From a virus, in UHGV virus genome UHGV-0425465: 41,610 nucleotides of DNA; one strand, given 5' to 3'. The translations under genes were made by a program, and so were the position numbers. Each line of letters begins with the position of its first letter. Position 1 is the first letter of the stretch. Positions 1 through 41,610 of the stretch are shown piece after piece. A model generated the notes under the pieces. The model did not search any database. It was given only the letters and a program-made list of their open reading frames with translations, and was not told where the DNA came from.

Positions 1-520
1 CGGCGCCCAGCCTGGCAATAAGAACGCCACAGGGCCGCCGAAGAATAAGAACGCAGAAAAATACGGTTTCTTCAGCAAGTACCTGCCTGAGGGGACCGTT
101 TCCATTATCCAGGAGATGCCCACGGACCCGCTGGACATTCTCTGGGACCAGGTACAGATAGCCTATGCTGCAATCATCCGGGCGCAGTCCATCATGTATG
201 TGAGGGACCGGAATGATAAGACCATTGAGAAGGTGGGCCATAAGGATGGGGAGACGGTCACGGAGGAGCGCTGGGAGGTACAGCAGGCCTGGGACAAGCA
301 GGGAAATTTCCTGCAGGCGCAGGCCAGAGCCCAGAAAACGCTGGAGGGCCTTATCAAACAGTATGATGAGCTCCTGCATAAAAACTGGGAGCTGGCCAGT
401 GAGGAGCAGAAAGCAAGGATTGCACAGCTCCGGGCCCAGACGGATAAGCTAACCGGGAACAACCAGGAGCTGGAGGACATGGAGGAGATAGAGGGGGATA
501 TCTATGGCGGCAGTAAATAG
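1..520 (+). CDS. terS: Terminase small subunit, C-terminal part (5'-truncated by the window edge; continues from 41429..41610)
   Basis: Frame open from nt 2. GNKNATGPPKNKNAEKYGFF repeat motif typical of Firmicutes phage TerS. Sits immediately upstream of terL and overlaps it. Confidence 0.7.
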   Translation, partial: GAQPGNKNATGPPKNKNAEKYGFFSKYLPEGTVSIIQEMPTDPLDILWDQVQIAYAAIIRAQSIMYVRDRNDKTIEKVGHKDGETVTEERWEVQQAWDKQGNFLQAQARAQKTLEGLIKQYDELLHKNWELASEEQKARIAQLRAQTDKLTGNNQELEDMEEIEGDIYGGSK

Positions 521-1883
521 GTTTGTCAGGAAAAAGACCATCCCATTTAACTTTTCCGAGAAGCACAAGGATTATATACGTAGGTGCGAGGCCTGCATGT
601 ATAACGTGGCGGAGGGTGCGGTCCGTGCCGGCAAGACAGTGGATAACGTGTTTGCCTTCGCCCATGAGTTGAAAACCACACCGGACCGGATTCACCTGGC
701 TACCGGTTCCACTATGGCCAATGCGAAGCTTAACATTGGTGATGCCAATGGCTTTGGGCTTGAGTGGATATTCCGGGGGCAATGCCACTGGGGGAAGTAC
801 AAGGACAATGAGGCGCTGTTTATCAAGGGCCCGGACACAAGGGGAAAACAGAAGATAGTAATCTTTGCGGGAGCCGCCAAGGAAGATAGCTACAAGAAGA
901 TTCGTGGAAACTCCTACGGTATGTGGATTGCAACTGAGATTAACCTGCATCACGATAACACCATCAAGGAGGCATTCAACCGTCAGCTGGCTGCCCGGCG
1001 CCTGAAGGTGTTCTGGGACCTGAACCCTGATAACCCAAGGGCGCCCATCTATGCGGAGTATATAGACAAGTATCAGCGACAGGCGGATGCAGGGGACTTC
1101 CCGGGTGGATACAACTACATGCACTGCACCATCTACGATAACATCAACATCACCCCAGAGCGTCTGCGGGAGGTCGAAAGCCGGTATGATAAGAACAGTA
1201 TCTGGTACCTCCGGGACATCAAGGGAATGCGAGTGGTGGCCAATGGCCTTATCTATCGCCGGTTTGCTGATGATACAAGTACCAAGCAGTACACGTTCCG
1301 CCTGACAGATAAGCCCAAAGACATCATGGAGATTATCCTGGGGATTGACTTTGGCGGCAGTGGTTCCGGCCACGCCTTCACGGCCACAGCCATCACCAGG
1401 GGATACCATAACGTGGTTGCACTGGCATCAGAATGGATTGGTTGCAAGGATGAGAAGGGGAACCAGATAGAGATTGACCCCGAAATGCTGGGGACAATGT
1501 TCTGTAACTTCTGCCAGAAGATAATCAGCAGGCACGGGTACATCACAACAGTGTATGCAGACAGCGCAGAGCAGACGCTGATAGCTGGCATCCGGAGCAG
1601 CCTGCGTAAACATGGACTTGGGTGGGTCCGTGTAGAGAATGCCCTGAAAACTGAAATCAATGACAGGATTAACGCTACCGCCATCCTGATGGCCCAGGGG
1701 CGTTTTTATTATGTCCAGGGCGAGTGCCAGAGCCTTGTGGATGCATTGAGTACTGCAGTGTGGGACCCAAAGGAATTGACGAAGAATGTCCGGTTAGATG
1801 ATGGTACAAGCGATATTGACAGCCTGGACAGCTTTGAGTATACGTTTGAACGGCAGATTAGCAGGCTCATAAAGTATGGATAG
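504..1883 (+). CDS. terL: Terminase large subunit (PBSX/XtmB-like)
   Basis: 459 aa, ATPase N-terminus and nuclease C-terminus by length and position; directly precedes portal. Confidence 0.85.
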   Translation: MAAVNRFVRKKTIPFNFSEKHKDYIRRCEACMYNVAEGAVRAGKTVDNVFAFAHELKTTPDRIHLATGSTMANAKLNIGDANGFGLEWIFRGQCHWGKYKDNEALFIKGPDTRGKQKIVIFAGAAKEDSYKKIRGNSYGMWIATEINLHHDNTIKEAFNRQLAARRLKVFWDLNPDNPRAPIYAEYIDKYQRQADAGDFPGGYNYMHCTIYDNINITPERLREVESRYDKNSIWYLRDIKGMRVVANGLIYRRFADDTSTKQYTFRLTDKPKDIMEIILGIDFGGSGSGHAFTATAITRGYHNVVALASEWIGCKDEKGNQIEIDPEMLGTMFCNFCQKIISRHGYITTVYADSAEQTLIAGIRSSLRKHGLGWVRVENALKTEINDRINATAILMAQGRFYYVQGECQSLVDALSTAVWDPKELTKNVRLDDGTSDIDSLDSFEYTFERQISRLIKYG

Positions 1884-1897
1884 GAGGTGAGGGGACG

Positions 1898-3277
1898 ATG
1901 AGATTCACAAAGATGCTGGACTTAATCACGAATGTCCTGAATAAGGATGCGGACACGCAGGTGGATGTGTGCCTGACATCCCAGATGGCGAACCAGATAG
2001 AGTTGTGGACCCGGATGTATGAGAACCGGTCCCCCTGGGTGAATAACAAGGACGTGCTCAGTGCGAACTTAGCGCCGACCATTGCCTCAGAGATTGCGCG
2101 CCTGGTGACGCTGGAGCTCAAATCTGAGGTGACAGGTGGAACGGCGGCGGATTACCTGAATGAGCAGTATCAGCGTAAGGTGATCAAGGATTTGCGCCGG
2201 TATGTTGAATACGGATGTGCTAAAGGCGGACTGGTGATGAAGCCATACATTACCCAGCAGGGCATTGAGGTACAGTTCGTACAGGCAGACTGTTTCTTCC
2301 CATTGTCTTTCGATAGTTCCGGTCGGATTACGCAGTGTGTATTCACAGAGCAGTTCCGGAAGGGTCAGAAGATATACACCAGGCTGGAGGTACACACGCT
2401 GCAGGGAAAACGGGTACATATCACCAACCGTGCATTTGTGGCCACAAATGATTACAGCCTTGGCAGCGAAGTGGTGGTCAGTTCCATAGACAGGTGGTCG
2501 GAGCTGGTTCCGGAGCTGCTGCTTGAGGGGGCAGACCGGTTGCTGTTTGGGTACTTTAAGGTACCGTTGGCCAATGCGGACGATTCAGACAGCCCACTGG
2601 GCGTATCTGTGTTTTCCAGGGCCGTGGACCTGATCCGGGAAGCAGACAGGCGCTATTCCAACATCTGCTGGGAGTATGAGGGGACACAGCTGGCTGTCCA
2701 TATTGCCACCTCCCTGCTAAAGTACAACCAGGACCGGGACAAGTTTGAGTATCCGGGAGGTAAGGAACGGTTATACCGAAACGTGGAATACGATACAGGC
2801 GCCGCGGATAAGCCTTTCATTGACACCTTCAGCCCAGAAATAAGGGACACGGCCCTATTCAACGGCTTTAACAACCAGCTGAAGCTGGTGGAGTTCAACT
2901 GCAACTTGGCCTACGGTACCCTGTCAGATCCACAGAGTGTGGATAAGACCGCCACTGAGATTAAGACCAGCAGGCAGCGCTCCTATGTGATGGTGTCCGA
3001 TACCCAGATGGCATTACAGGATGCCCTGGAGGACCTGGTGTATGCCATGAGTTTCTGGGCGGCACTGTATGGCTTAATTCCAGCCGGCAGTGACTATGAG
3101 GTGTCATCTGATTGGGACGACAGCGTGATCGTAGATGCGGAACTGGAGCGTCAGACAGACCGGGCTGATGTAGCAATGGGCGTAATGTCCCTGGCAGAAT
3201 ACAGGGCCAAGTGGTACGGCGAAACCCTGGAGGAGGCAGCCAAGAACCTGCCGGAACCAGCATTGACGGAGGAGTGA
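1898..3277 (+). CDS. Portal protein (SPP1 gp6-like)
   Basis: 459 aa following terL; RBS GGAGGTGAGG. Confidence 0.8.
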   Translation: MRFTKMLDLITNVLNKDADTQVDVCLTSQMANQIELWTRMYENRSPWVNNKDVLSANLAPTIASEIARLVTLELKSEVTGGTAADYLNEQYQRKVIKDLRRYVEYGCAKGGLVMKPYITQQGIEVQFVQADCFFPLSFDSSGRITQCVFTEQFRKGQKIYTRLEVHTLQGKRVHITNRAFVATNDYSLGSEVVVSSIDRWSELVPELLLEGADRLLFGYFKVPLANADDSDSPLGVSVFSRAVDLIREADRRYSNICWEYEGTQLAVHIATSLLKYNQDRDKFEYPGGKERLYRNVEYDTGAADKPFIDTFSPEIRDTALFNGFNNQLKLVEFNCNLAYGTLSDPQSVDKTATEIKTSRQRSYVMVSDTQMALQDALEDLVYAMSFWAALYGLIPAGSDYEVSSDWDDSVIVDAELERQTDRADVAMGVMSLAEYRAKWYGETLEEAAKNLPEPALTEE

Positions 3278-5295: not shown

Positions 5296-5574
5296 TTGTG
5301 ATTCCTATATGCCTAAAATGTGAATATTGTGAAAAGGGTATGAAATGCAGGGTATATCCGCAAGGCATACCTAGGGAAGTTGTATTGGCTCAAAAGCCGC
5401 CTGGGGATATATGTAAGGATTATAAATACAAACGGGAGAGTGAAGCATCTGATTAGTCAGGTGCTTTTATTATGCTTAAAAATCGGTCAGAAGATAAGAC
5501 CTAAAACAGTCAGCCGTTGGTGGATGGTTACACACCTACAAATAACCTAAGGACGGGCAGGAAAGGAAAAGAAG

Positions 5575-6108
5575 ATGAAGACAGAGGATTTGCAGGCAAA
5601 AGGATTGTCACAGGAACAGATTGATTATGTCATGGCCGAATACGGAAAGGACGTCAACGGGATTAAGCAGGAAAGGGATACCTATAAGTCCCAGCTTTCC
5701 GCAGCACAAGCTACCCTTAAGAGCTTTGAAGGCGTAAACATATCGGAGCTCCAGGGGAAGATACAGACCCTGACGGCAGACTTGGCCAACAAGGATGCTG
5801 AGTACCAAAAGCGGCTGGCGGAACGTGATTTTAACGACCTTCTGAAATCCACAGCGGAAGGCTTCAAGCCCAGGGACATTAAAGCTGTTATGCCTTTCTT
5901 GGATGTGGATAAGCTGAAAGCCAGCAAGAACCAGGAATCGGATATCAAGGCAGCCCTGGAAATAGTCAAAAAGGAAAAGGGCTATCTGTTTCAGGACGTC
6001 AGTATTCCCCGGGTGGTTGCGCCTACTCCTGGGCCTGGTGGTGAGAAAACAGATGACACAAGGACACAAGCAAACAATGCCTTAAGAAGTCTTTTAGGCA
6101 GAGAATAG
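5575..6108 (+). CDS. Scaffolding protein
   Basis: 177 aa, helical and charged, immediately upstream of the major capsid gene. Confidence 0.7.
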   Translation: MKTEDLQAKGLSQEQIDYVMAEYGKDVNGIKQERDTYKSQLSAAQATLKSFEGVNISELQGKIQTLTADLANKDAEYQKRLAERDFNDLLKSTAEGFKPRDIKAVMPFLDVDKLKASKNQESDIKAALEIVKKEKGYLFQDVSIPRVVAPTPGPGGEKTDDTRTQANNALRSLLGRE

Positions 6109-6121
6109 GAGGTAAAAGAAT

Positions 6122-7312
6122 ATGCCAGTAAATATTACAAGCAGGGCCGACGCGGAGGCCATTATCCGTGAGCAGGTTATTTCAACTATTTTCCAGGACG
6201 CGCCGAAGCAGTCTACTTTCATGTCCCTGGCACGGAAGCTGCCGAACATGACAAGCAACCAGACCCGGATGAGGGTACTTGACTTCCTTCCGACCGCATA
6301 TTGGGTGGATGGGGATACTGGCATGAAACAGACAACCAGGCAGGCTTGGGATAACGTATTCATCGAGGCTGCGGAACTGGCAGTCATCGTGCCGATTCCT
6401 GAGGCAGTGCTGGATGATGCGGAGTTCGACATCTTCGGTGAGATTACACCGAGGGTCAACGAGGCAATCGGCCAGCGCGTGGACAGCGCAATCATCTTCG
6501 GTGTGAACCGCCCGCGTAACTGGCAGAATGACATCATCACGCTGGCCAGGCAGGCGGGTAACAACGTGGCTGTGGGTTCCGGTCCGGATTATTATAATCT
6601 GCTTCTGGGCGAAGGCGGCGTCATCTCCAAGGTGGAGGAAGATGGTTTTATGGCAACTGGAGCGTTGGCAGCCATGAGTATGAGAGCGAAGTTGAGAGGA
6701 ATCCGGGCAACGGACGGCAGCCTTATTTTCAAGTCTGACATGCAGGGTTCCACAAATTACGCATTGGACGGCGCGCCGATGTATTTCCCACAGAATGGGG
6801 CCTACGATAACACCATTGCACAGCTGATTGTTGGTGATTTCAAGCAGGCGGTGTATTCCATCCGTCAGGATGTGACAGTAAAGATTCTGGACCAGGGTGT
6901 CATTCAGGACCCGACAACGAAAGAAATCGTCTACAACCTGGCGCAGCAGGATATGGTTGCCCTGCGTATTGTATTCCGGATGGGGTGGGCGCTTCCGAAT
7001 CCGGCAACCAGGATGGATGAGGACCGTGTTGGCTGTCCATTTGCATACCTGGAGCCGACAAGCCCGACAACTACGCAGAAGGTAACATTCACAGTTAAGG
7101 ACAATGCGGAAGTACCGGTGGCCATTGATGGAGCAATTGTGGACGTGAACGGTTCTAGGGTTAAGACAGACGCGTCCGGCGTGGCAGAGTTTAACCTCCG
7201 CGCGGGAACATATCCAGCAAAGATTAAAAAATCAGGCTACAGCCAGGTTACCGAGACAGTGACTGTAGCAGGTGAAGCAGTAACAAAGGACGTAACCCTC
7301 ATCAAGCAGTAA
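6122..7312 (+). CDS. Major capsid protein (HK97 fold) with a C-terminal prealbumin/CarboxypepD_reg-like domain
   Basis: 396 aa after scaffold; the C-terminal about 85 aa (TFTVKDNAEVPVAIDGAIVDVNGSRVKTDASGVAEFNLRAGTYPAKIKKSGY) matches the carboxypeptidase-regulatory / Ig-like pattern. Confidence 0.75.
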   Translation: MPVNITSRADAEAIIREQVISTIFQDAPKQSTFMSLARKLPNMTSNQTRMRVLDFLPTAYWVDGDTGMKQTTRQAWDNVFIEAAELAVIVPIPEAVLDDAEFDIFGEITPRVNEAIGQRVDSAIIFGVNRPRNWQNDIITLARQAGNNVAVGSGPDYYNLLLGEGGVISKVEEDGFMATGALAAMSMRAKLRGIRATDGSLIFKSDMQGSTNYALDGAPMYFPQNGAYDNTIAQLIVGDFKQAVYSIRQDVTVKILDQGVIQDPTTKEIVYNLAQQDMVALRIVFRMGWALPNPATRMDEDRVGCPFAYLEPTSPTTTQKVTFTVKDNAEVPVAIDGAIVDVNGSRVKTDASGVAEFNLRAGTYPAKIKKSGYSQVTETVTVAGEAVTKDVTLIKQ

Positions 7313-8513: not shown

Positions 8514-8966
8514 TTGACAATCATAGATTTCATGAGGCAGAAACTGACAGAATATCCAAAGATATCAGAATTCCTGACAGACAGCGATATCCATGTGGAC
8601 TTCACTGAACCGGACTCCAGTTATGGCCTGTCCAGCAATGGTGACAGCCTGGTCAAGGAGGATATGCTGGGGAACCAGACCCGCCGGCACAACTTCTCCA
8701 TGTATGCTGTGGCGCCATCCTTTACGGATTACTGCCGCCTGGCCAACAGCAATTTTCTCTTGGAACTTGGCTACTGGCTGGAACAGCTGCCTGAAGAGGG
8801 TGGCCTTATTGCCAATATCGGAGGGCGGGAAATGGAAGCAAGGTTCCTGAAGGCCACCACATCCAATGCAATGGCCATGCAGCCCATGGGTGAGACAGTT
8901 AACGATGGGATCCTGTACCAGATACAGATACAGGTGACCTACAAAATAGAAAGCGAGGACTTGTAA
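8514..8966 (+). CDS. Tail completion protein (putative)
   Basis: 150 aa, TTG start with GAGGAGGG RBS; position before the major tail gene. Confidence 0.4.
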   Translation: MTIIDFMRQKLTEYPKISEFLTDSDIHVDFTEPDSSYGLSSNGDSLVKEDMLGNQTRRHNFSMYAVAPSFTDYCRLANSNFLLELGYWLEQLPEEGGLIANIGGREMEARFLKATTSNAMAMQPMGETVNDGILYQIQIQVTYKIESEDL

Positions 8967-9499
8967 TGCACAAAATGGAACTGCAGCTGTTCGCGGAATC
9001 AATCCCTGCAGCTGGAAAAATTAAAAGGAAATGGATGGCACATTATATTGATGCTGCCCTCCCATCTGCCAGCAAGGCTGAGTACAGCCGCCTGGGCAAG
9101 GACCTGGAAGAGTACGTTGTAGAAATGAATGCCAATGTGGAAACCAAAAACAATATCTGGGGAGAGACATCCGTCAACCTGGACAGCTACCAGCCCCAGG
9201 CATCCGCCGACCCGTATTATGCTGAGATTGGGGAGCCGTTATTTGACCGTCTGCAGGCAATCGTGGACGAACGGCAGACGCTGGATGACCTTAAGACCAG
9301 TGTGGTGGAGGTACATCTCTGGGAACCAGTTGAATCAGCGGAAGGTACCTATGTGGCGTATAAGGAAGATGCAATCATTGAAGTATCCAGTTATGGCGGG
9401 GATACTACGGGATACCAGATTCCATTCAATGTTCATCATACTGGAAACAGGGTTAAGGGTAAGTTTGTACTTGCCACAAAGACGTTCACTGCTAATTAA
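8966..9499 (+). CDS. Major tail protein (tail tube)
   Basis: 177 aa; precedes the tail chaperone pair and tape measure. Confidence 0.6.
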   Translation: MHKMELQLFAESIPAAGKIKRKWMAHYIDAALPSASKAEYSRLGKDLEEYVVEMNANVETKNNIWGETSVNLDSYQPQASADPYYAEIGEPLFDRLQAIVDERQTLDDLKTSVVEVHLWEPVESAEGTYVAYKEDAIIEVSSYGGDTTGYQIPFNVHHTGNRVKGKFVLATKTFTAN

Positions 9500-9514
9500 G
9501 GAGGGGTAATAACA

Positions 9515-9964
9515 TTGAGAAGTATTAATTTTGATGATGGACTTAAGTCATTTGCAATCAATGGGGATGAATCCAGGGTAATCAGGTTCAACCCTGGGGA
9601 CCTGAACATGAAGGTCCGGGCAAAAGAAGCTGTTAAACGGATTTCGGACTGGCAGGCAAAGATAGAGGATATCAAGCTGAATACAGACGGAACACCGGTA
9701 AATGATGATGGAGGGGCATCGGACGCCCTTGAGGGTTTTGATGCCATGCTCCGCCGTGAACTGAACCATATCTTCAACGCGGATGTCTATGACATTGTGT
9801 TCAATGGGCAATCTCCCCTGTGTATTGTTGGAAAGGAGGAGAAATGTTTCCTTTTTGAGGCCTTCCTGTCTCCTGCCATGCAGATAATAGAGGAGGAGAT
9901 AGATGCGTTTGCGAGGGATAGCCAGGCACGCGTGGATAAATATACAGCAGGGTATCATAAATGA
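9515..9964 (+). CDS. Tail assembly chaperone (gpG-like)
   Basis: 149 aa; LKSFAINGDESRVIRFNPGD motif typical of siphovirus chaperones; acidic C-terminus. Confidence 0.65.
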   Translation: MRSINFDDGLKSFAINGDESRVIRFNPGDLNMKVRAKEAVKRISDWQAKIEDIKLNTDGTPVNDDGGASDALEGFDAMLRRELNHIFNADVYDIVFNGQSPLCIVGKEEKCFLFEAFLSPAMQIIEEEIDAFARDSQARVDKYTAGYHK

Positions 9965-22540: not shown

Positions 22541-22772
22541 GTATCACACGAAGTATCACACGATATGTTCCTTCTATATTAAATACGTTGTATTTTACGG
22601 GTCCGATTCCCGTCAGCAGCTTTAACCACAGCCCTTGTGTTTACTGGAATATCCGGTATTTACAAGGGTTTTTCTTTGCAATTGCGTTAAAAACATGAAT
22701 TATAAATGTATGTAAATGTAACGATTTTTCTGGTCAAGTATCACACGAAAGTCACACGGTATCACACGGATT
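22541..22772. other. Putative attP: arm-type direct repeats (GTATCACACGA/G x5) flanking a core with a tRNA/tmRNA 3'-end-like segment
   Basis: Repeats at 22541..22564 (x2) and 22738..22770 (x3) adjacent to the int 3' end. 22597..22620 ACGGG-TCCGATT-CCCGT-CAGCAGC resembles a T-arm plus acceptor 3' strand. Confidence 0.45.
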
Positions 22773-23796
22773 TTAACTGTTTGAAATGTTCATTGATTTT
22801 CCGGTTCTGCTTAACCGACTCCAGGTCAATGACGTTCCGGTAAACAGTTTTCATCACATTGTCGCTGGCCCATCCGCCGCGCTGGAGTATGTACTGGTCC
22901 GGTATCCCAATTGCATGCATGATGCTCGCTGAGTAGTGCCTGAGGTCATGGAAACGGAAGTGCGGGATATCAATTGTTTTAAGGACTCTCCCGAATCGAT
23001 GGGTTATATAATCCGGATTGCTTTTAACCAATGGTCCCTTGATGTTTTTTATTTTATCAATCACAAAATCCGGAAACTCGACACTACGATAACTTCCATA
23101 AGTTTTAGGCTGTTTTATATACCATTCGCGGTCGGCGCCTTTAACCATGCTCTTGCTAACCTTAATGGTATTCCCGTGAACATCATTGCTGGTCAGTGCG
23201 CAAATTTCACCGCGCCTAAGAGGGCCGAACGCCGCCAACAGAACTGCAATTTCCAATTCTGTTCCCTTGATATGGTTCAATAGCTTTCTTACGTCATCGT
23301 CACTGGGGCAATATAATTCCGCTTTCTTTTTTGCCGGAAGTGTAACTTTGACCCTTAAATCCGGGGCAAACATCTCAAGTGTAACAGATAGCAGCCCGTA
23401 GGCATTGCGTACTGTTTTTGGGCTTACTTTTGCAGCCAGGTCTGATATCCATATCTGGATGGCCGTATTGTCCAGCTCTGGGAGCCGTATGGCCCCAAAT
23501 TTGCCGCTTAAATAGTTCTTGATGATACCTTCATACCCTCTTATAGTTGACGGGCTTAAAACGCCTTTCTTGACTTCCAGATAGCGCTTGGCGGCTTCAT
23601 TGATGCTCAAGTCGTTCATAACTGGGGCGGGTTTATCTTTATTTGCTTTCCACTCAGCCGCAGCCAGTTGGGCCAATTTCTTTGATGCTGCAGTGAAGCT
23701 CTTATAATGTTTCTTCCCACCATCATCCGTATAATCATATACCTGTACCCGGAATTGACCGGATGGAAGCTGGTTCTTTTTCTTCGGTTTAGCCAT
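22762..23796 (-). CDS. int: Tyrosine site-specific integrase
   Basis: 344 aa; N-terminal arm-binding-like domain; C-terminal catalytic region with …HDLRHYSAS… (HxxR) and a downstream Tyr. Confidence 0.85.
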   Translation of the reverse strand: MAKPKKKNQLPSGQFRVQVYDYTDDGGKKHYKSFTAASKKLAQLAAAEWKANKDKPAPVMNDLSINEAAKRYLEVKKGVLSPSTIRGYEGIIKNYLSGKFGAIRLPELDNTAIQIWISDLAAKVSPKTVRNAYGLLSVTLEMFAPDLRVKVTLPAKKKAELYCPSDDDVRKLLNHIKGTELEIAVLLAAFGPLRRGEICALTSNDVHGNTIKVSKSMVKGADREWYIKQPKTYGSYRSVEFPDFVIDKIKNIKGPLVKSNPDYITHRFGRVLKTIDIPHFRFHDLRHYSASIMHAIGIPDQYILQRGGWASDNVMKTVYRNVIDLESVKQNRKINEHFKQLKSV

Positions 23797-35896: not shown

Positions 35897-37063
35897 GTGG
35901 CCACCGTGACAGGATATCCTGGCTCCTTTCGTAAAATGGAAAAGATAGAATTAACCACGGAAGAGTGGAAAGCAGAGAAAAAGAAAAAAAAGGCCCAGAT
36001 GGTAGCTATGCAGGCCTTGCCCTATGAAGTTAAGGTGAAGCGGGCAGAACTGCGGGCCAGGGAATACATAGAAAAATTGGATGACATGGAGCTGAACGCC
36101 CATGTGAGCGTTGGTGGCTTGGACAGTATTGTGCTGTTGCTGTTTCTGCGGAAGATTGGCATTGATGTTCCGGCCATATCGGTATCGGCTTTAGAGGACA
36201 AGAGTATTCAGCGAATCCATCGGGAATTAGGAGTAATACCGATTGCCCCAGGAAAATCCAAGGTACAAATTTTACAAGAGTATGGCTTCCCGGTTATCTC
36301 CAAGAAAATTGCCGGAAGAATCGAAACCTTACAGAATCCTACAGACAAGAATAGGACAGTTCGCCATGCAATCATTACAGGTGAATGTGGTGCCCAGGGA
36401 CATTATGCCAAGAACAGCCGTATGAAGCTGCCGAAAAAGTGGTTGGAGCAGTTTGCAGGATATGAAAATGAGAATGAGGGCGTGAATTATAGGATTGCAC
36501 CTTTCAAGGTTAGCAACAAGTGCTGTCTGTACATGAAAGAACAGCCTTGCGACAAGTGGGCAAAAGAACACAAGAGCCGGCCCTACCTGGGGCTGATGGC
36601 GTCAGAAGGGGGACAGCGGGAGGAAGCGCTGACAGAACACGGCTGTAACTATTTCGGCAAGGGAGTCATCCGTAGCGCACCATTTGCGCCATTCCTGCGT
36701 CAGGACCTTTTACAATTGGCACTTGACCTTAATGCGCCGGTGCCGGAGATATATGGGACGATTGAGCGTAGGCCAGATGGAACCCTGTACACCACAGGGG
36801 CACAGCGGACGGGCTGCAGTATGTGTGGTTTTGGTGTCCACATGGAACAGCGTCCACACCGGTTCGACCAGCTACGGGTCAGGAACCAGAAAGAATGGGA
36901 ATTTTGGATGTACCGCTGTTGTACGGACCCAGAGACTGGCGAGAAATTCGGTTGGGGCCGGGTGCTGGATTACATCGGCGTTGAGTGGGAGAATGTACCG
37001 GATGGAGTAGACTTGCCTGGGCAGATAGATTTTTTTACAGGTGGGTTTATTTCACAAAATTAG
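35897..37063 (+). CDS. PP-loop ATP-pyrophosphatase (PAPS-reductase/DndC-like) family protein
   Basis: 388 aa; SVGGLDS = SGGxDS PP-loop; C-terminal Cys cluster (KCCLYM, GCNYFG, GCSMCGFG); GTG start with AAAGGAGG RBS. Confidence 0.6.
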   Translation: MATVTGYPGSFRKMEKIELTTEEWKAEKKKKKAQMVAMQALPYEVKVKRAELRAREYIEKLDDMELNAHVSVGGLDSIVLLLFLRKIGIDVPAISVSALEDKSIQRIHRELGVIPIAPGKSKVQILQEYGFPVISKKIAGRIETLQNPTDKNRTVRHAIITGECGAQGHYAKNSRMKLPKKWLEQFAGYENENEGVNYRIAPFKVSNKCCLYMKEQPCDKWAKEHKSRPYLGLMASEGGQREEALTEHGCNYFGKGVIRSAPFAPFLRQDLLQLALDLNAPVPEIYGTIERRPDGTLYTTGAQRTGCSMCGFGVHMEQRPHRFDQLRVRNQKEWEFWMYRCCTDPETGEKFGWGRVLDYIGVEWENVPDGVDLPGQIDFFTGGFISQN

Positions 37064-38075: not shown

Positions 38076-38528
38076 ATGAAAAGAGTATTGGATGCATGTT
38101 GCGGAAGCAGGATGTTTTATTTTGACAGAGATAATCCAGAGGTTTTGTATGCCGATAATCGGGAGGTAGAGACAACTCTTTGTGATGGCAGACAGTTGTT
38201 GATTAAACCGGATATTCAAATGGATTTCAGACAAATGCCATATGAAGACAGTTGCTTTAAAGTGGTGGTTTTTGATCCACCGCATCTGGTTCATGCTGGC
38301 ACAGGTTCTTGGTTAGCTCAGAAGTATGGGATCCTTCCAGTAGACTGGCCAGAGTATCTCAAACAAGGATTTAGTGAGTGCATGAGAGTTCTTGAACCAG
38401 ATGGATTGCTAATTTTCAAGTGGAACGAAGATCAAATAAAATTATCTGAGGTATTGAGAGTTTTTGACAAAAAACCATTATTGGGAGACCAGAGAGGAAA
38501 AACAAGATGGTTAGTTTTCATCAAGTAA
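38076..38528 (+). CDS. Small SAM-dependent methyltransferase (motif I VLDACCGS, motif IV FDPPH; likely DNA N6A/N4C amino-methyltransferase)
   Basis: 150 aa; motif I then (D/N)PP(Y/H) about 60 aa later (gamma-like order). Confidence 0.55.
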   Translation: MKRVLDACCGSRMFYFDRDNPEVLYADNREVETTLCDGRQLLIKPDIQMDFRQMPYEDSCFKVVVFDPPHLVHAGTGSWLAQKYGILPVDWPEYLKQGFSECMRVLEPDGLLIFKWNEDQIKLSEVLRVFDKKPLLGDQRGKTRWLVFIK

Positions 38529-38716: not shown

Positions 38717-39010
38717 ACAGGCCAAAGCCAACAAGGTCCTGCGGACATCGGCCGTGGCGGCATCAGCTGAATCGGCCATCCGAGAACCGCCGCCGGATAC
38801 ATGGCCTGTCAGGATGCCGCCCTATGCATACACCAGCCTGTGCCCGGACCCGGGACTGCGCCGGCCGCCGAAGGGAGTGATACGGTACCATGAGACAGTG
38901 CTACATAGACAACGGGCGCGGGGGCTGTGATGGCCAGCGCAACAACAAGGGCAGGATACGGTATGGGTGCTGGGCATGCCCATGGCTGGATGCGGGAGGA
39001 GGTGATGCCG

Positions 39011-39511
39011 ATGAAACAGACAGAAGCGTTGGAGGAAGTGGCCAGGCTGGCCGCAAAGGAAGCCCTTAAGGAGCATGAGAAGCAGCTCCGGAGGGAAAAG
39101 AGAATAAAGGTATTCCAGAACACCAAGAAGCTGATGGAGAATTATAACCGCATTTGTCAGAGCGTGGAGGAGGGAGTGGCAGAACTGTCCGACATGGATA
39201 ATGGCGATGAACTGGAGGAGTTCACCGAGGAAGATATCTTTATCAACAGCATTCTTAAGGGCAAACTTCGGAGTATTGTCATGATAGGGCACATAGACAA
39301 GTGTCTGAAGCTCCTGGAGGATGAGGAATGCCGCAAGAATACGCATGAGAAGTATCTGGCATTCAAGTATTTCTATCTGGATGGGATGACATATGAGAGT
39401 ATTGCAGAGATTTATGGATATGGGGAACGGACGGCCAGACGGTGGATAACAGAGCTTACGGGAATACTCAGCGTATATCTCTTTGGGGCTGATGCCCTCA
39501 TGCTGGATTAG
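39011..39511 (+). CDS. ArpU-family / sigma-70 region-4-like late transcriptional regulator
   Basis: 166 aa from ATG 39011 (RBS GGGAGGAGGTG); C-terminal HTH YLDGMTYESIAEIYGYGERTARRWITEL; classic position upstream of terS. Confidence 0.65.
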   Translation: MKQTEALEEVARLAAKEALKEHEKQLRREKRIKVFQNTKKLMENYNRICQSVEEGVAELSDMDNGDELEEFTEEDIFINSILKGKLRSIVMIGHIDKCLKLLEDEECRKNTHEKYLAFKYFYLDGMTYESIAEIYGYGERTARRWITELTGILSVYLFGADALMLD

Positions 39512-39515
39512 GGGC

Positions 39516-39533
39516 TTGACAGGAGCGTGTCAA
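39516..39533. promoter_or_regulatory. Palindrome TTGACA-GGAGCG-TGTCAA just after the ArpU stop
   Basis: Perfect 6-bp arms. Confidence 0.35.
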
Positions 39534-39543
39534 AATCGTGTCC

Positions 39544-39572
39544 TTGTCATGTCCGTTTGGATGATTTATAAT
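39544..39572 (+). promoter_or_regulatory. Sigma-70 promoter TTGTCA-17-TATAAT
   Basis: Near-consensus hexamers with 17-nt spacer; no ORF downstream for about 330 nt. Confidence 0.55.
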
Positions 39573-39579
39573 TGTAATA

Positions 39580-39833
39580 TGCAAAATTGGGTGATACGAA
39601 AAAGACTTGATTTTGTTATCCTCCCCACAGATAGCGGCCGCCAGGTGTCATACCCTGGTGGCTGACTAACCGGTATTGTGTAATCCCTCATAAGACAGAC
39701 CTGTACTTTCACGGGACAATGCCGCAGGGTATGCAACCGGTAAGGTATCTGGTTTACCCCACGACATTTTCCAGATACGTTGATTTTCTCCTTTTGATTA
39801 GTCCCTGCGGATATAGCGGGGGCTTTTCTTTTG
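39580..39833 (+). ncRNA. Candidate small non-coding RNA (about 250 nt) bounded by a promoter and an intrinsic terminator
   Basis: Internal 9-bp stem-loop 39637..39662; terminator CCCTGCG-GATATA-GCGGGGGC + TTTTCTTTT at 39804..39833; no plausible plus-strand ORF. Confidence 0.4.
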
Positions 39834-39863
39834 TCAGATTTTGGTGTATCCTTTAGAATATAC

Positions 39864-39892
39864 TTGAGAAATCTTAAAAAAAGAAATATAAT
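39864..39892 (+). promoter_or_regulatory. Sigma-70 promoter TTGAGA-17-TATAAT driving the GNAT-ASCH cassette
   Basis: Hexamers with 17-nt spacer, 25 nt upstream of RBS GGGGGAGGG. Confidence 0.5.
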
Positions 39893-39916
39893 AATACAAA
39901 GACAGTAGGGGGAGGG

Positions 39917-40972
39917 ATGTATGGCGTGGGGAAAAATTTGGAGTATCTTCAGTTTCAAGATATTGATTTATCAGATGCTTTTTTTGATTCTTTAAAAGCT
40001 GATTATCGTGGATTTGAGGGATGGTTTAAAAGAAAAGGCAGTAATTGGGCATTTTTGCATAGAAATAGAAATCAGATAGATGGATTTCTATATTGCAAGT
40101 TGGAAAGAGAAAAAGTTGATGATATTACTCCTGTATTATATGCGGATAGAATTGCTAAAATCGGTACTTTTAAGATTGATTCGCATGGCACAAGGCTTGG
40201 AGAACGATTTGTAAAAAAGGCATTGGATTATGCAATATCAGAAAAAGTGGATGTTTGCTATGTGACGATATTTGAAAAGCAACAAGGCTTGATAAATCTG
40301 ATAAAAAAATACGGATTTAGAAGGTACGGAGAGAAAAGAACAGTGGACGGAACAGAATCAGTCTATGTTAAGAATATGAGAAGGCTGATTGGCGATGTTG
40401 TATTGGATTACCCGTTAGTATCTTTACATGGAGTTAAAAAGTACTTGATATCGATATATCCGCAATACCATTCAGCGATGTTTCCTGATTCGATACTAAA
40501 GACAGAAAGCGTAAATATTTTACAGGATATAACATATACGAATTCTATTCACAAGGCATATGTTTGCAGAATGTCAAACGTCGATAAGCTAAAAAGAGGG
40601 GATATATTGGTAGTTTATCGTACTGCAAGTGATGGACCAGCCGAATATAAGTCTGTTGCTAGCTCCATATGCGTAGTAGAAGGCGTGAAAAGTCAGGATT
40701 GTTTTAATTCTTTCGATGATTTTTATGATTATACCAGTAAATATAGTATTTTTGATAAAACAGAGTTGAAAAAGTGGTACGAAAAAGGTAGTTGTACTGT
40801 GATAAAAATGCTTTACAATATTGCTCTTTCTAAAAGGCTCACTAGGCATACACTTATAGAAGAAATTGGAATTCCTAGAGATGGTTATTGGGGTTTCCTG
40901 AGAATAACAGATGAACAATTAAAAAACATATTGAAGGCTGGGGGCATAGATGAAAGCATTATTGTCGATTAA
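39917..40972 (+). CDS. GNAT-fold acetyltransferase fused to a C-terminal ASCH/PUA-like domain (AT-rich)
   Basis: 351 aa; GNAT motif-B-like NLIKKYGFRRYGEK; C-terminal half begins KKYLISIYPQYHSAMF, resembling the ASCH N-terminus of the next gene (MKALLSIKPEFIAEIV). Confidence 0.55.
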   Translation: MYGVGKNLEYLQFQDIDLSDAFFDSLKADYRGFEGWFKRKGSNWAFLHRNRNQIDGFLYCKLEREKVDDITPVLYADRIAKIGTFKIDSHGTRLGERFVKKALDYAISEKVDVCYVTIFEKQQGLINLIKKYGFRRYGEKRTVDGTESVYVKNMRRLIGDVVLDYPLVSLHGVKKYLISIYPQYHSAMFPDSILKTESVNILQDITYTNSIHKAYVCRMSNVDKLKRGDILVVYRTASDGPAEYKSVASSICVVEGVKSQDCFNSFDDFYDYTSKYSIFDKTELKKWYEKGSCTVIKMLYNIALSKRLTRHTLIEEIGIPRDGYWGFLRITDEQLKNILKAGGIDESIIVD

Positions 40973-41327
40973 ACCAGAGTTTATTGCAGAGATTGTTGCA
41001 GGAAGTAAAAAGTTTGAATATCGCAAGGTATCATTTAAGAAAGAGGTAGACTCTGTTGTGGTATATGCATGTATGCCTATAGGAAAAATTGTTGGAGAGT
41101 TCAAAGTAGGTGATATCATAGCAATGCCACCCAATGATTTGTGGAAAACAACAAAAGACTATTCTGGGATATCGTATAAGTTTTTTTGTCAGTATTTTAA
41201 GGGAAGAAAAAACGCATATGCAATACAAATTAAAGAGTATATTCCATATGAGGCGCCAATAGATCCCTATAAAGAGTTTGAACATTTTGTGCCACCGCAG
41301 TCATATCGATACTTAGCAGATGTCTGA
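40950..41327 (+). CDS. ASCH-domain protein (PUA-like; YqfB-like fold)
   Basis: 125 aa; MKALLSIKPEFIAEIVAGSKKFEYRK … VGDIIAMPPNDLW typical ASCH. Confidence 0.6.
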   Translation: MKALLSIKPEFIAEIVAGSKKFEYRKVSFKKEVDSVVVYACMPIGKIVGEFKVGDIIAMPPNDLWKTTKDYSGISYKFFCQYFKGRKNAYAIQIKEYIPYEAPIDPYKEFEHFVPPQSYRYLADV

Positions 41328-41428
41328 TGGAATCAAAAAGAAATAATGAGTTATGTAGCGATATTTCAAAGGGCCACCTCCGGGCGGCTCTTTTCTATAC
41401 CCAAAACGACGAATCGAGGTGAGGAGGC

Positions 41429-41610
41429 ATGGCCAGGGCGCCAGACCCAAGAATCGAACAGGCGAAGGCCATGTATCTGGAAGGCAGGAAACTAGTTGAG
41501 ATTGCAAGTCAACTAAATTTGCCGGAGGGAACGGTCCGCCGGTGGAAGTGCACACACAAGTGGAATAACGAGCGTTCGGATAGAGTTAGCGAACGTTCGC
41601 AAAGAAAACG
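41429..41610 (+). CDS. terS: Terminase small subunit, N-terminal part (3'-truncated; continues in frame at nt 1)
   Basis: MARAPDPRIEQAKAMYLEGRKLVEIASQLNLPEGTVRRWKCTHKWN = TerS HTH N-terminus; RBS GAGGTGAGGAGG. Confidence 0.7.
   Translation, partial: MARAPDPRIEQAKAMYLEGRKLVEIASQLNLPEGTVRRWKCTHKWNNERSDRVSERSQRK

Follow-up and report, generated by a model that had tools for sequence, protein, structure and literature searches.

The window analysed here, the whole 41,610-nucleotide stretch of UHGV virus genome UHGV-0425465, contains a cassette of two overlapping genes immediately in front of terS, the gene of the terminase small subunit. Gene A encodes a GNAT-type acetyltransferase domain fused to a PUA-like (EVE) domain, gene B a stand-alone ASCH protein. 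Judged from sequence comparisons, the cassette is a fairly divergent copy, carried by a probable Bacillota phage, of the already catalogued GNAT-EVE + ASCH family, which is also listed as PDC-M11 and as GevTA. The cassette is probably a prophage-expressed module of the toxin-antitoxin type, acting in abortive infection or defence (or in addiction) and carried as a moron, in which A would acetylate a nucleic-acid-linked target and B would counteract A. This reading is supported by the membership in PDC-M11 and GevT/GevA, the PUA-like fold, the linkage of A and B, the invariant residues of both proteins, and the moron and defence context.

Both proteins match the best models of PDC-M11 in PADLOC over their whole length: A corresponds to PDC-M11A (PDLC04419, E 2.4e-142, residues 7-351) and B to PDC-M11B (PDLC04425, E 7.8e-46, residues 1-123). 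The other PDC-M11A models comprise 444-501 amino acids (aa) and possess an N-terminal extension, which is missing in the window protein. The abbreviation PDC stands for "phage defense candidate", a status that PDC-M11 is also given in a recent study of O157:H7. A tblastn search against GenBank phages gave full-length homologues in lambda-like phages of E. coli, in Salmonella SopEPhi, in Lactobacillus Lj965, and in others. In the lambda-like E. coli phage PhiR47_2 (PV340567.1), both genes are annotated, as "GevT toxin" and "GevA antitoxin", and lie immediately downstream of cI; A is 45% and B 48% identical to these proteins over the full length. Gene order and overlap are the same, the protein lengths are similar (357/125 aa versus 348-351/125 aa in the window), and both cassettes are prophage morons; in contrast, the slots (downstream of cI and upstream of terS, respectively) and the phage backbones differ. 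The place just downstream of cI is the one occupied in lambda by rexAB, which is expressed in the lysogen. "Gev" presumably abbreviates GNAT-EVE, and the PhiR phage panel is reportedly the work of Brenes and Laub (2025). At an identity of at least 99%, the E. coli cassette was found in 275 of 5426 complete E. coli genomes (5%), always on the chromosome. In general databases, these E. coli proteins bear no more specific names than "N-acetyltransferase", "hypothetical protein", and "ASCH domain-containing protein".

The same architecture has been described by Bell et al. (2020), who report EVE domains fused to the C-terminus of GNAT domains, often together with an N-terminal PIN domain (PMC7641849). 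According to these authors, "almost all" GNAT-EVE operons encode a second PUA-like protein, ASCH, and the form without PIN domain is "commonly located within prophages"; they predict toxin-antitoxin systems and name Iyer et al. (2013) as those who described them first (PMC7641849). The architectural features of such an operon were found in the window: an N-terminal GNAT domain, a C-terminal PUA-like domain, an adjacent stand-alone ASCH gene, and full-length matches to the family models. Neither a PIN domain nor an AAA_17 ATPase gene belongs to the window pair, which is thus of the prophage-typical, PIN-less form. Note that this form was assigned mainly to beta- and gamma-proteobacterial prophages (PMC7641849), whereas the window copy and its nearest relatives come from phages of the Bacillota type. 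The host of the window phage is probably a Bacillota bacterium, a proposal based solely on the taxa of the nearest homologues. A preliminary description of this DNA had regarded the pairing as uncharacterised. That view has to be given up, as the pair is on record as a GNAT-EVE + ASCH operon (2013, 2020), as PDC-M11, and as GevT/GevA; the idea of a toxin and its antidote, on the other hand, agrees with the published predictions (PMC7641849) and with the GenBank annotation.

Sequence models gave only faint signals for the fold of A: the Pfam match to a GNAT family was below threshold (Acetyltransf_10, E 0.13, residues 89-148), and NCBIfam gave only a weak match to PaiA. As these matches were too weak, the fold was taken from structure prediction. 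An AlphaFold2 model based on 33 homologues reached a predicted local distance difference test score (pLDDT) of 84 and a predicted template modelling (TM) score of 0.84, and its N-terminal part has the fold of a GNAT acetyltransferase. The division into two domains is also seen in the phage protein families: phrog_6345 matches A over its full length (E 3e-133), residues 9-153 additionally match an "acetyltransferase" PHROG, and residues 164-351 a separate PHROG. For the C-terminal half, Foldseek proposed ZmASCH as the best non-GNAT match in the PDB (5y6b, 5guq, 5y6c; E 1.7e-5 to 5.5e-5, target TM score 0.69-0.76), that is, the same protein that is matched by B. The Leishmania protein 2ar1 was aligned as well, and the order of the secondary structure elements is that of B. 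Because of the matches to ZmASCH and 2ar1, we assign the modelled C-terminal half to the PUA-like barrels; at the level of the superfamily, this assignment of the model is certain.

The name of this domain and its relation to B require more care. Weak matches to Pfam EVE were found in 10 of 29 C-terminal domains of the family (best E 1.1e-3) and matches to ASCH in none of the 29; the domain of the window copy itself had no Pfam match. The label EVE follows the literature (PMC7641849), and the weak EVE matches agree with it. When the domain was compared with B by means of hhalign, the probability was 2-3% and the E-value 0.013-0.02, which is not significant; the register of this non-significant alignment agrees, KYLxSIYP being paired with KALLSIKP and VVYRT with VVYAC. 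A search with the domain profile against the PDB sequences gave no match even at E 10. The preliminary description had considered the C-terminal half ASCH-like and a paralogue of gene B. The PUA-like fold, for which a Foldseek search had been suggested as a check, stands, an ASCH assignment by Pfam does not; and since the profile-profile comparison is not significant, paralogy with B is a statement about the fold only and does not hold at the sequence level.

The mean column identity of the A family is 61%. The loop HGT[RK][LM]GE[RQ]F is invariant and located at the position that usually binds acetyl-CoA in GNAT enzymes. A second invariant block lies in the C-terminal domain and consists of Y181-P182-x-Y184-H185, F189-x-D191-S192, E197, D204, and N209-S210-I211-x-K213; L194 is invariant in the family, too. 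Residues 186-208 (window 40472-40540) are the sole long stretch of low confidence in the AlphaFold2 model (pLDDT < 50), despite the invariant residues which they contain. This combination suggests that the loop may order only on a substrate or on a partner such as protein B.

On the basis of its sequence, protein B is an ASCH protein of the Glu-type "GKER" group, and the ASCH assignment of the preliminary description proved sound. The score of B against Pfam ASCH, 21.0 bits, is just below the cut-off of 21.2, many of the listed homologues carry a precomputed PF04266, and a profile of 29 homologues matches ZmASCH over its full length with an E-value of 1.5e-17. Invariant or nearly so in B are G18-x-K20-x-x-E23-x-R25, Y39, Y82, and P116-Q117-S118. 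These positions align with G25-K27-E30-R32, Tyr47, Tyr90, and Gln127-Ser128 of ZmASCH, residues which line the nucleic-acid cleft of that enzyme and affect binding as well as RNA cleavage. B therefore shows what characterises the ZmASCH subgroup, namely an ASCH beta-barrel, the GxKxxExR signature, and the tyrosine and serine of the cleft (Y39 and S118 for Tyr47 and Ser128 in PDB entry 5GUQ). A difference concerns the genomic setting: ZmASCH stands alone, whereas a GNAT-EVE gene always accompanies B. E. coli YqfB, to which B had been compared earlier, carries a threonine in this signature and has free N4-acetylcytidine (ac4C) as its substrate; B has a glutamate. An N4-acetylcytidine amidohydrolase of the YqfB type is ruled out by this motif, which is of the Glu type and not GK[T/S]R, and the comparison was dropped. 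NCBIfam PRK12279, described as a "50S ribosomal protein L22/unknown domain fusion protein", was also matched by B: the alignment covers profile positions 209-310 of 311, in the C-terminal "unknown domain", with an E-value of 3.4e-8, and hints at a link between the ASCH subtype of B and the ribosome or translation.

The distribution of the family shows how closely the two genes are tied to each other. A large protein collection contained 1253 clusters at 90% identity for A and 1047 for B, and about 185,000 species genomes (one genome per species) contained 206 A loci, which belong to Bacillota, Bacteroidota, Proteobacteria, Chloroflexota, Verrucomicrobia, and other phyla. Linkage was counted in 80 loci kept of these 206 and in 80 loci kept from 137 IMG/VR viral contigs with a relative of A. 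A match to the hidden Markov model of B was present in 78 of the 80 genomic loci, the contigs of the remaining two ending 100-160 nucleotides (nt) past A; in 76 of the 78, B lay directly downstream on the same strand, mostly overlapping A. All 80 viral loci contained B, in 77 cases directly downstream. Combined, B accompanies A in 158 of 158 homologous loci where the contig permits this to be seen, and directly follows it in 153. The pairing of A followed by B is thus close to obligatory across phyla and phages. In a comparison of 149 loci, which are phylogenetically non-independent, the AT content of the cassette exceeded that of its flanks in 97% of cases (mean GC content 0.35 versus 0.44). 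A closely similar cassette, with B 87% identical, also occurs in phages with unrelated backbones, where the gene that immediately follows it is a terS of another family; a nucleotide search with the cassette region against the phage collection gave no near match.

Two further observations concern the A family. In two phage contigs, L162 (4976-6020) and L164 (1712-2756), the homologue of A is split near residue 168/170, at the boundary of the GNAT and the PUA-like domain, into two open reading frames (ORFs), and B is intact; the split may reflect the decay of a toxin gene or a form of A that is naturally in two pieces. Methanothermobacter phage psiM100 (AF301375.1 / NC_002628.3) encodes at 8722-9564 a 26%-identical homologue of A, ORFD (E 2e-16), which sits in the annotated "inserted fragment IFa". 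The location of ORFD indicates that the A family travels as an insert in archaeal viruses as well.

The preliminary description had placed two AT-rich genes behind a promoter in a genome of roughly 50% GC and had called them a moron. The genes are where it put them, the GC content of the window is 48.2%, and the comparison with related phages substantiates the moron. The segment 39864-41327 has a GC content of 0.343 and coincides with the window's lowest-GC stretch of this length (0.341, start 39851); for all stretches of 1464 nt, the mean is 0.482 and the standard deviation 0.042. Between 39750 and 41250, the GC content is 0.33-0.36 versus 0.45-0.63 on both sides, and the GC content at third codon positions is 0.28 and 0.29 in A and B versus 0.54-0.67 in structural genes (terminase, portal, tape-measure). 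The moron status is based on more than composition. When the window was compared by blastn with 80 relatives, the homology stopped in many of them near 39849 and resumed near 41371, just before terS. Depending on the relative, the left junction lies at 39850-39879; with respect to L102, the homology ends at 39878, inside the promoter spacer. A and B are absent in all 80 IMG/VR phages that encode the upstream helix-turn-helix (HTH) protein. Absence from relatives, deviant GC content (0.34 versus 0.48), and a promoter-like site together with flanking hairpins, whose function is predicted, support the conclusion drawn from the sequence that the cassette is inserted cargo between the HTH gene and terS. 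The coordinates of all features are compiled in Table 1.

Table 1. Coordinates of the cassette, its surroundings in the window, and cargo of the same slot in relatives
Feature	Position	Strand	Remarks
Gene A	39926..40972	+	GNAT-EVE fusion, GevT / PDC-M11A family; 348 aa from GTG 39926
Gene A, alternative ATG start	39917..40972	+	351 aa
GNAT domain of A	residues ~9-160; nt ~39941-40396	+	
PUA-like/EVE domain of A	residues ~165-351; nt ~40409-40969	+	
Gene B	40950..41327	+	stand-alone ZmASCH-type ASCH protein, 125 aa; GevA / PDC-M11B family
Promoter-like site, sigma-70 type	39864..39892	+	TTGAGA-17-TATAAT; 11/12 consensus positions
Terminator-like hairpin with T-run	39800-39824	+	just 5' of cassette
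Terminator-like hairpin with U-run	41368..41400 (hairpin 41368-41393)	+	RNAfold free energy -15.3 kcal/mol; right slot edge, conserved backbone
Window-specific insert (moron)	39850..41370	.	~1.5 kb; holds promoter-like site, A, B
HTH / sigma-70 region-4-like gene	38927..39511	+	upstream backbone; 194 aa; phrog_1558 (function unassigned)
Conserved backbone control region	39512..39849	+	palindrome, promoter-like site, leader, terminator hairpin
terS	41429..41610, in frame into 1..520	+	233 aa; PHROG terminase small subunit, E 2e-14
Integrase	22762-23796	-	replication genes after
Major head gene	6122-7312		downstream of GP20-b RNA and ORF 5575-6108
Slot cargo, L098	5962-7889		dGTPase defence gene (PADLOC E 5e-105) + 195-aa partner
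Slot cargo, L122 and L113	6056-7537 (L122)		DUF6731 protein + membrane protein
Slot examples between HTH gene and terS, L087 and L091	6082-7720 (L087); 1682-3190 (L091)		

The position at which the preliminary description let the cassette begin is the first base of the sigma-70-type site in Table 1, which is predicted to act as a promoter. Its -10 element is located within the insert, and its -35 element is shared with L102. For the start of A, two codons come into question, as a GGAGG motif (39911-39915) lies 10 nt from GTG 39926 and 1 nt from ATG 39917. Because of this spacing, the MGKNLEY with which the homologues begin, and the 348 aa which gene callers give in close relatives, GTG 39926 is probably the true start, yielding a protein of 348 aa. 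A and B are on the same strand and share 23 nt at the end of A and the start of B. An Rfam scan of the window gave no match in or beside the cassette.

In the relatives, the slot between the HTH gene and terS is filled in various ways. In L095 it is empty and about 300 nt long; elsewhere (L082-L161), it carries AT-rich cassettes of one or two genes with a GC content of 0.31-0.37. The cargo of one relative, L098, includes a dGTPase defence gene, which we count in favour of a defence function of the window cassette, too. Several gene pairs found in this slot had no Pfam or PADLOC match and are candidates for prophage defence cargo. The slot is preceded by a control region with a mean column identity of 91% among relatives without the cassette. 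Its elements are the palindrome TTGACAggagcgTGTCAA (TTGACA..TGTCAA), a promoter-like TTGTCA-17-TATAAT at 39544-39572, a structured leader of about 230 nt with a minimum free energy of -85 kcal/mol, and the terminator-like hairpin. For 39512-39850, no Rfam family was matched, and RNAalifold found only two compensatory pairs in the conserved leader, the sequences being too similar. By analogy, the region resembles a late-control unit of the lambda PR'-tR' (6S RNA) type that precedes the cargo slot and terS. The HTH protein itself, which is 59-96% identical in the 80 IMG/VR phages, where any terS or terL homologue that was detected lies downstream of it, matches Pfam HTH_23, HTH_28, and Sigma70_r4_2 just below threshold; the earlier designation "late activator" is plausible from its position. 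Directly after the T-run of the terminator, at 39826-39860, the window has TGTATCCT, in addition to the separate TTGAGA-17-TATAAT. In L098, L111, and L116, an extended -10-like TGTATGAT precedes the resident cargo at the same place, and a promoter for any inserted cargo may thus come from the slot itself.

If the cassette is a toxin-antitoxin-type module, as we favour, it would be transcribed from its own promoter in the lysogen. A would dock on nucleic acid via its PUA-like/EVE domain, most likely on tRNA or another RNA and possibly on a modified DNA base, and its GNAT domain would transfer an acetyl group from acetyl-CoA, leading to growth arrest. Candidate targets are aminoacyl-tRNA, as in the case of the known GNAT toxins, an RNA base, or a DNA base, the latter according to a proposal of Iyer et al. 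(PMC7641849). B would neutralise A in one of two ways: it could remove the acetyl mark, so that the two proteins form a writer/eraser pair comparable in function to DarT/DarG, or it could bind or process the substrate of A. The effect of B could accordingly consist in the enzymatic erasure of A's mark, in a processing of the RNase type, or in stoichiometric binding or substrate competition.

Several findings weigh against this reading. PDC-M11 is a candidate system only, with no phenotype attached to it; the Gev names derive from a single GenBank record; and Bell et al. stated that no such module had been characterised as of 2020 (PMC7641849). Experimental papers on the GNAT-EVE + ASCH family did not turn up in our literature searches, which did not extend to the article from which the Gev names presumably stem. 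As to the chemistry, B belongs to the Glu-type ASCH group, whose best-studied member, ZmASCH, is reported to be an RNase for single-stranded RNA; free ac4C was not a substrate of ZmASCH, and in vivo the protein failed to reduce the ac4C level of tRNA. Moreover, the numbers of promoter- and terminator-like sites in a scan were not above those of shuffled controls, so that the sites next to the cassette are plausible but not statistically established.

In DarT/DarG, the toxin writes a covalent mark on nucleic acid, the antitoxin enzyme removes it, and the system acts in phage defence. The logic shared with the window pair would be that a toxin, encoded by the first gene, marks nucleic acid and that an antitoxin with the fold of an eraser takes the mark off; the likeness is one of working principle only, as DarT/DarG uses ADP-ribosylation and unrelated folds, whereas the window pair would use acetylation with B as a putative eraser. 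In its strict form, this means that A and B would act as a reversible switch based on nucleic-acid acetylation, in which the GNAT-EVE protein writes an acetyl mark (e.g. N4-acetylcytidine in tRNA, or a mark on phage nucleic acid) and the ASCH protein is its dedicated eraser. We put this forward tentatively and with considerable doubt; we infer the writer/eraser chemistry, which the preliminary description had already suggested. According to a preprint, ASCH proteins including ZmASCH remove ac4C34 from tRNA in vitro, which makes an eraser role of B more plausible. If such a switch exists, it would be the first acetyl-based writer/eraser system of toxin-antitoxin or defence type and the acetylation counterpart of DarTG.

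A different role, which we consider unlikely, is counter-defence or takeover: during infection, the GNAT-EVE protein would acetylate phage or host nucleic acid in order to evade restriction or to shut down the host, and the ASCH protein would be a specificity or regulatory partner. Bell et al. discuss phage GNAT-EVE proteins as a possible protection against restriction-modification and cite the proposal of DNA-base acetylation by Iyer et al.; in addition, EVE and ASCH domains are capable of recognising modified DNA bases (PMC7641849). The cassette also adjoins the packaging genes and lies on the strand of the late genes. However, terminator-like hairpins would insulate it, it has a promoter-like site of its own, and it is dispensable, given its absence in 80 close relatives. 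Furthermore, the slot holds a bona fide host-type defence gene, the dGTPase, in a relative, the E. coli phage homologue is found beside cI in the position of lambda's rexAB, and the family is widespread in bacterial chromosomes across phyla as well.

Alternatively, the cassette could be a pure addiction or stabilisation module, which keeps the prophage or the cassette itself without contributing to phage defence. The organisation of overlapping, strictly linked genes is that of a toxin-antitoxin system, the GenBank annotation names a toxin and an antitoxin, and a split A next to an intact B, as in L162 and L164, is what one expects of a decaying toxin and a retained antitoxin. Yet the family is catalogued as a defence candidate, the slot carries a defence gene in a relative, and many prophage toxin-antitoxin modules act in defence; we consider an exclusive addiction function improbable.

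The least probable of the modes considered is that of AtaT/TacT, by which A would acetylate the alpha-amine of aminoacyl-tRNA and B would be a stoichiometrically binding antitoxin, its ASCH fold being used only for protein-protein contacts or as a decoy. The ends of tRNA are bound by domains of the PUA type, and since the C-terminal domain of A and B have the same fold, B could mimic the targeting domain of A or compete with it. Acetylation of aminoacyl-tRNA by GNAT toxins is documented (PMC7641849), but the partner in the window is not an antitoxin of the ribbon-helix-helix (RHH)/DUF1778 type and is encoded downstream, not upstream, of the toxin gene, and B has kept the residues that form the nucleic-acid cleft in an active enzyme family, for which a protein that only binds would have no use. 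AtaT, TacT, KacT, and ItaT share with the window pair a GNAT effector, a small two-gene operon on mobile DNA, and a proposed target related to translation. They are, in contrast, single-domain toxins with an upstream RHH/DUF1778 antitoxin, whereas A combines a GNAT with a PUA-like domain and its ASCH partner is encoded downstream. Membership in the type II GNAT toxin-antitoxin family (AtaRT/TacAT/KacAT) was rejected for this two-domain A and downstream ASCH partner, which does not by itself exclude the mode of action.

The window itself adds one more, fairly divergent copy from a Bacillota phage to a catalogued family. The family as such merits experimental attention, being strictly two-gene and widespread over bacterial phyla and phages. 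GNAT-EVE + ASCH is among the few candidate defence or toxin-antitoxin modules in which, beside an acetyltransferase, both partners have PUA-like folds of the reader/eraser type. The writer/eraser model is directly testable, as ASCH proteins are now reported to be tRNA ac4C deacetylases, and the interest of the family would be higher if that model were true. The fixed slot, which reaches from the conserved promoter-leader-terminator unit to terS and contains varying AT-rich cargo, is useful for finding further prophage cargo.

The phage that carries the cassette is a temperate siphophage. As the reading frame of terS is open from 41429 through 520, the window represents a complete, closed or circularly permuted phage genome; terS is followed by the genes for terL, portal, minor head, major head, and tape-measure proteins. 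A GP20-b RNA (Rfam RF03003, 50 bits compared to a gathering score of 36.2) was detected on the plus strand at 5485-5549, just upstream of an ORF at 5575-6108. Upstream of the HTH gene, the window encodes a protein similar to PAPS (3'-phosphoadenosine 5'-phosphosulfate) reductases (35897-37063, phrog_424) and a small protein resembling DNA methyltransferases (38076-38528, phrog_954, E 3e-76), sequence similarities which hint that the phage modifies its own DNA.

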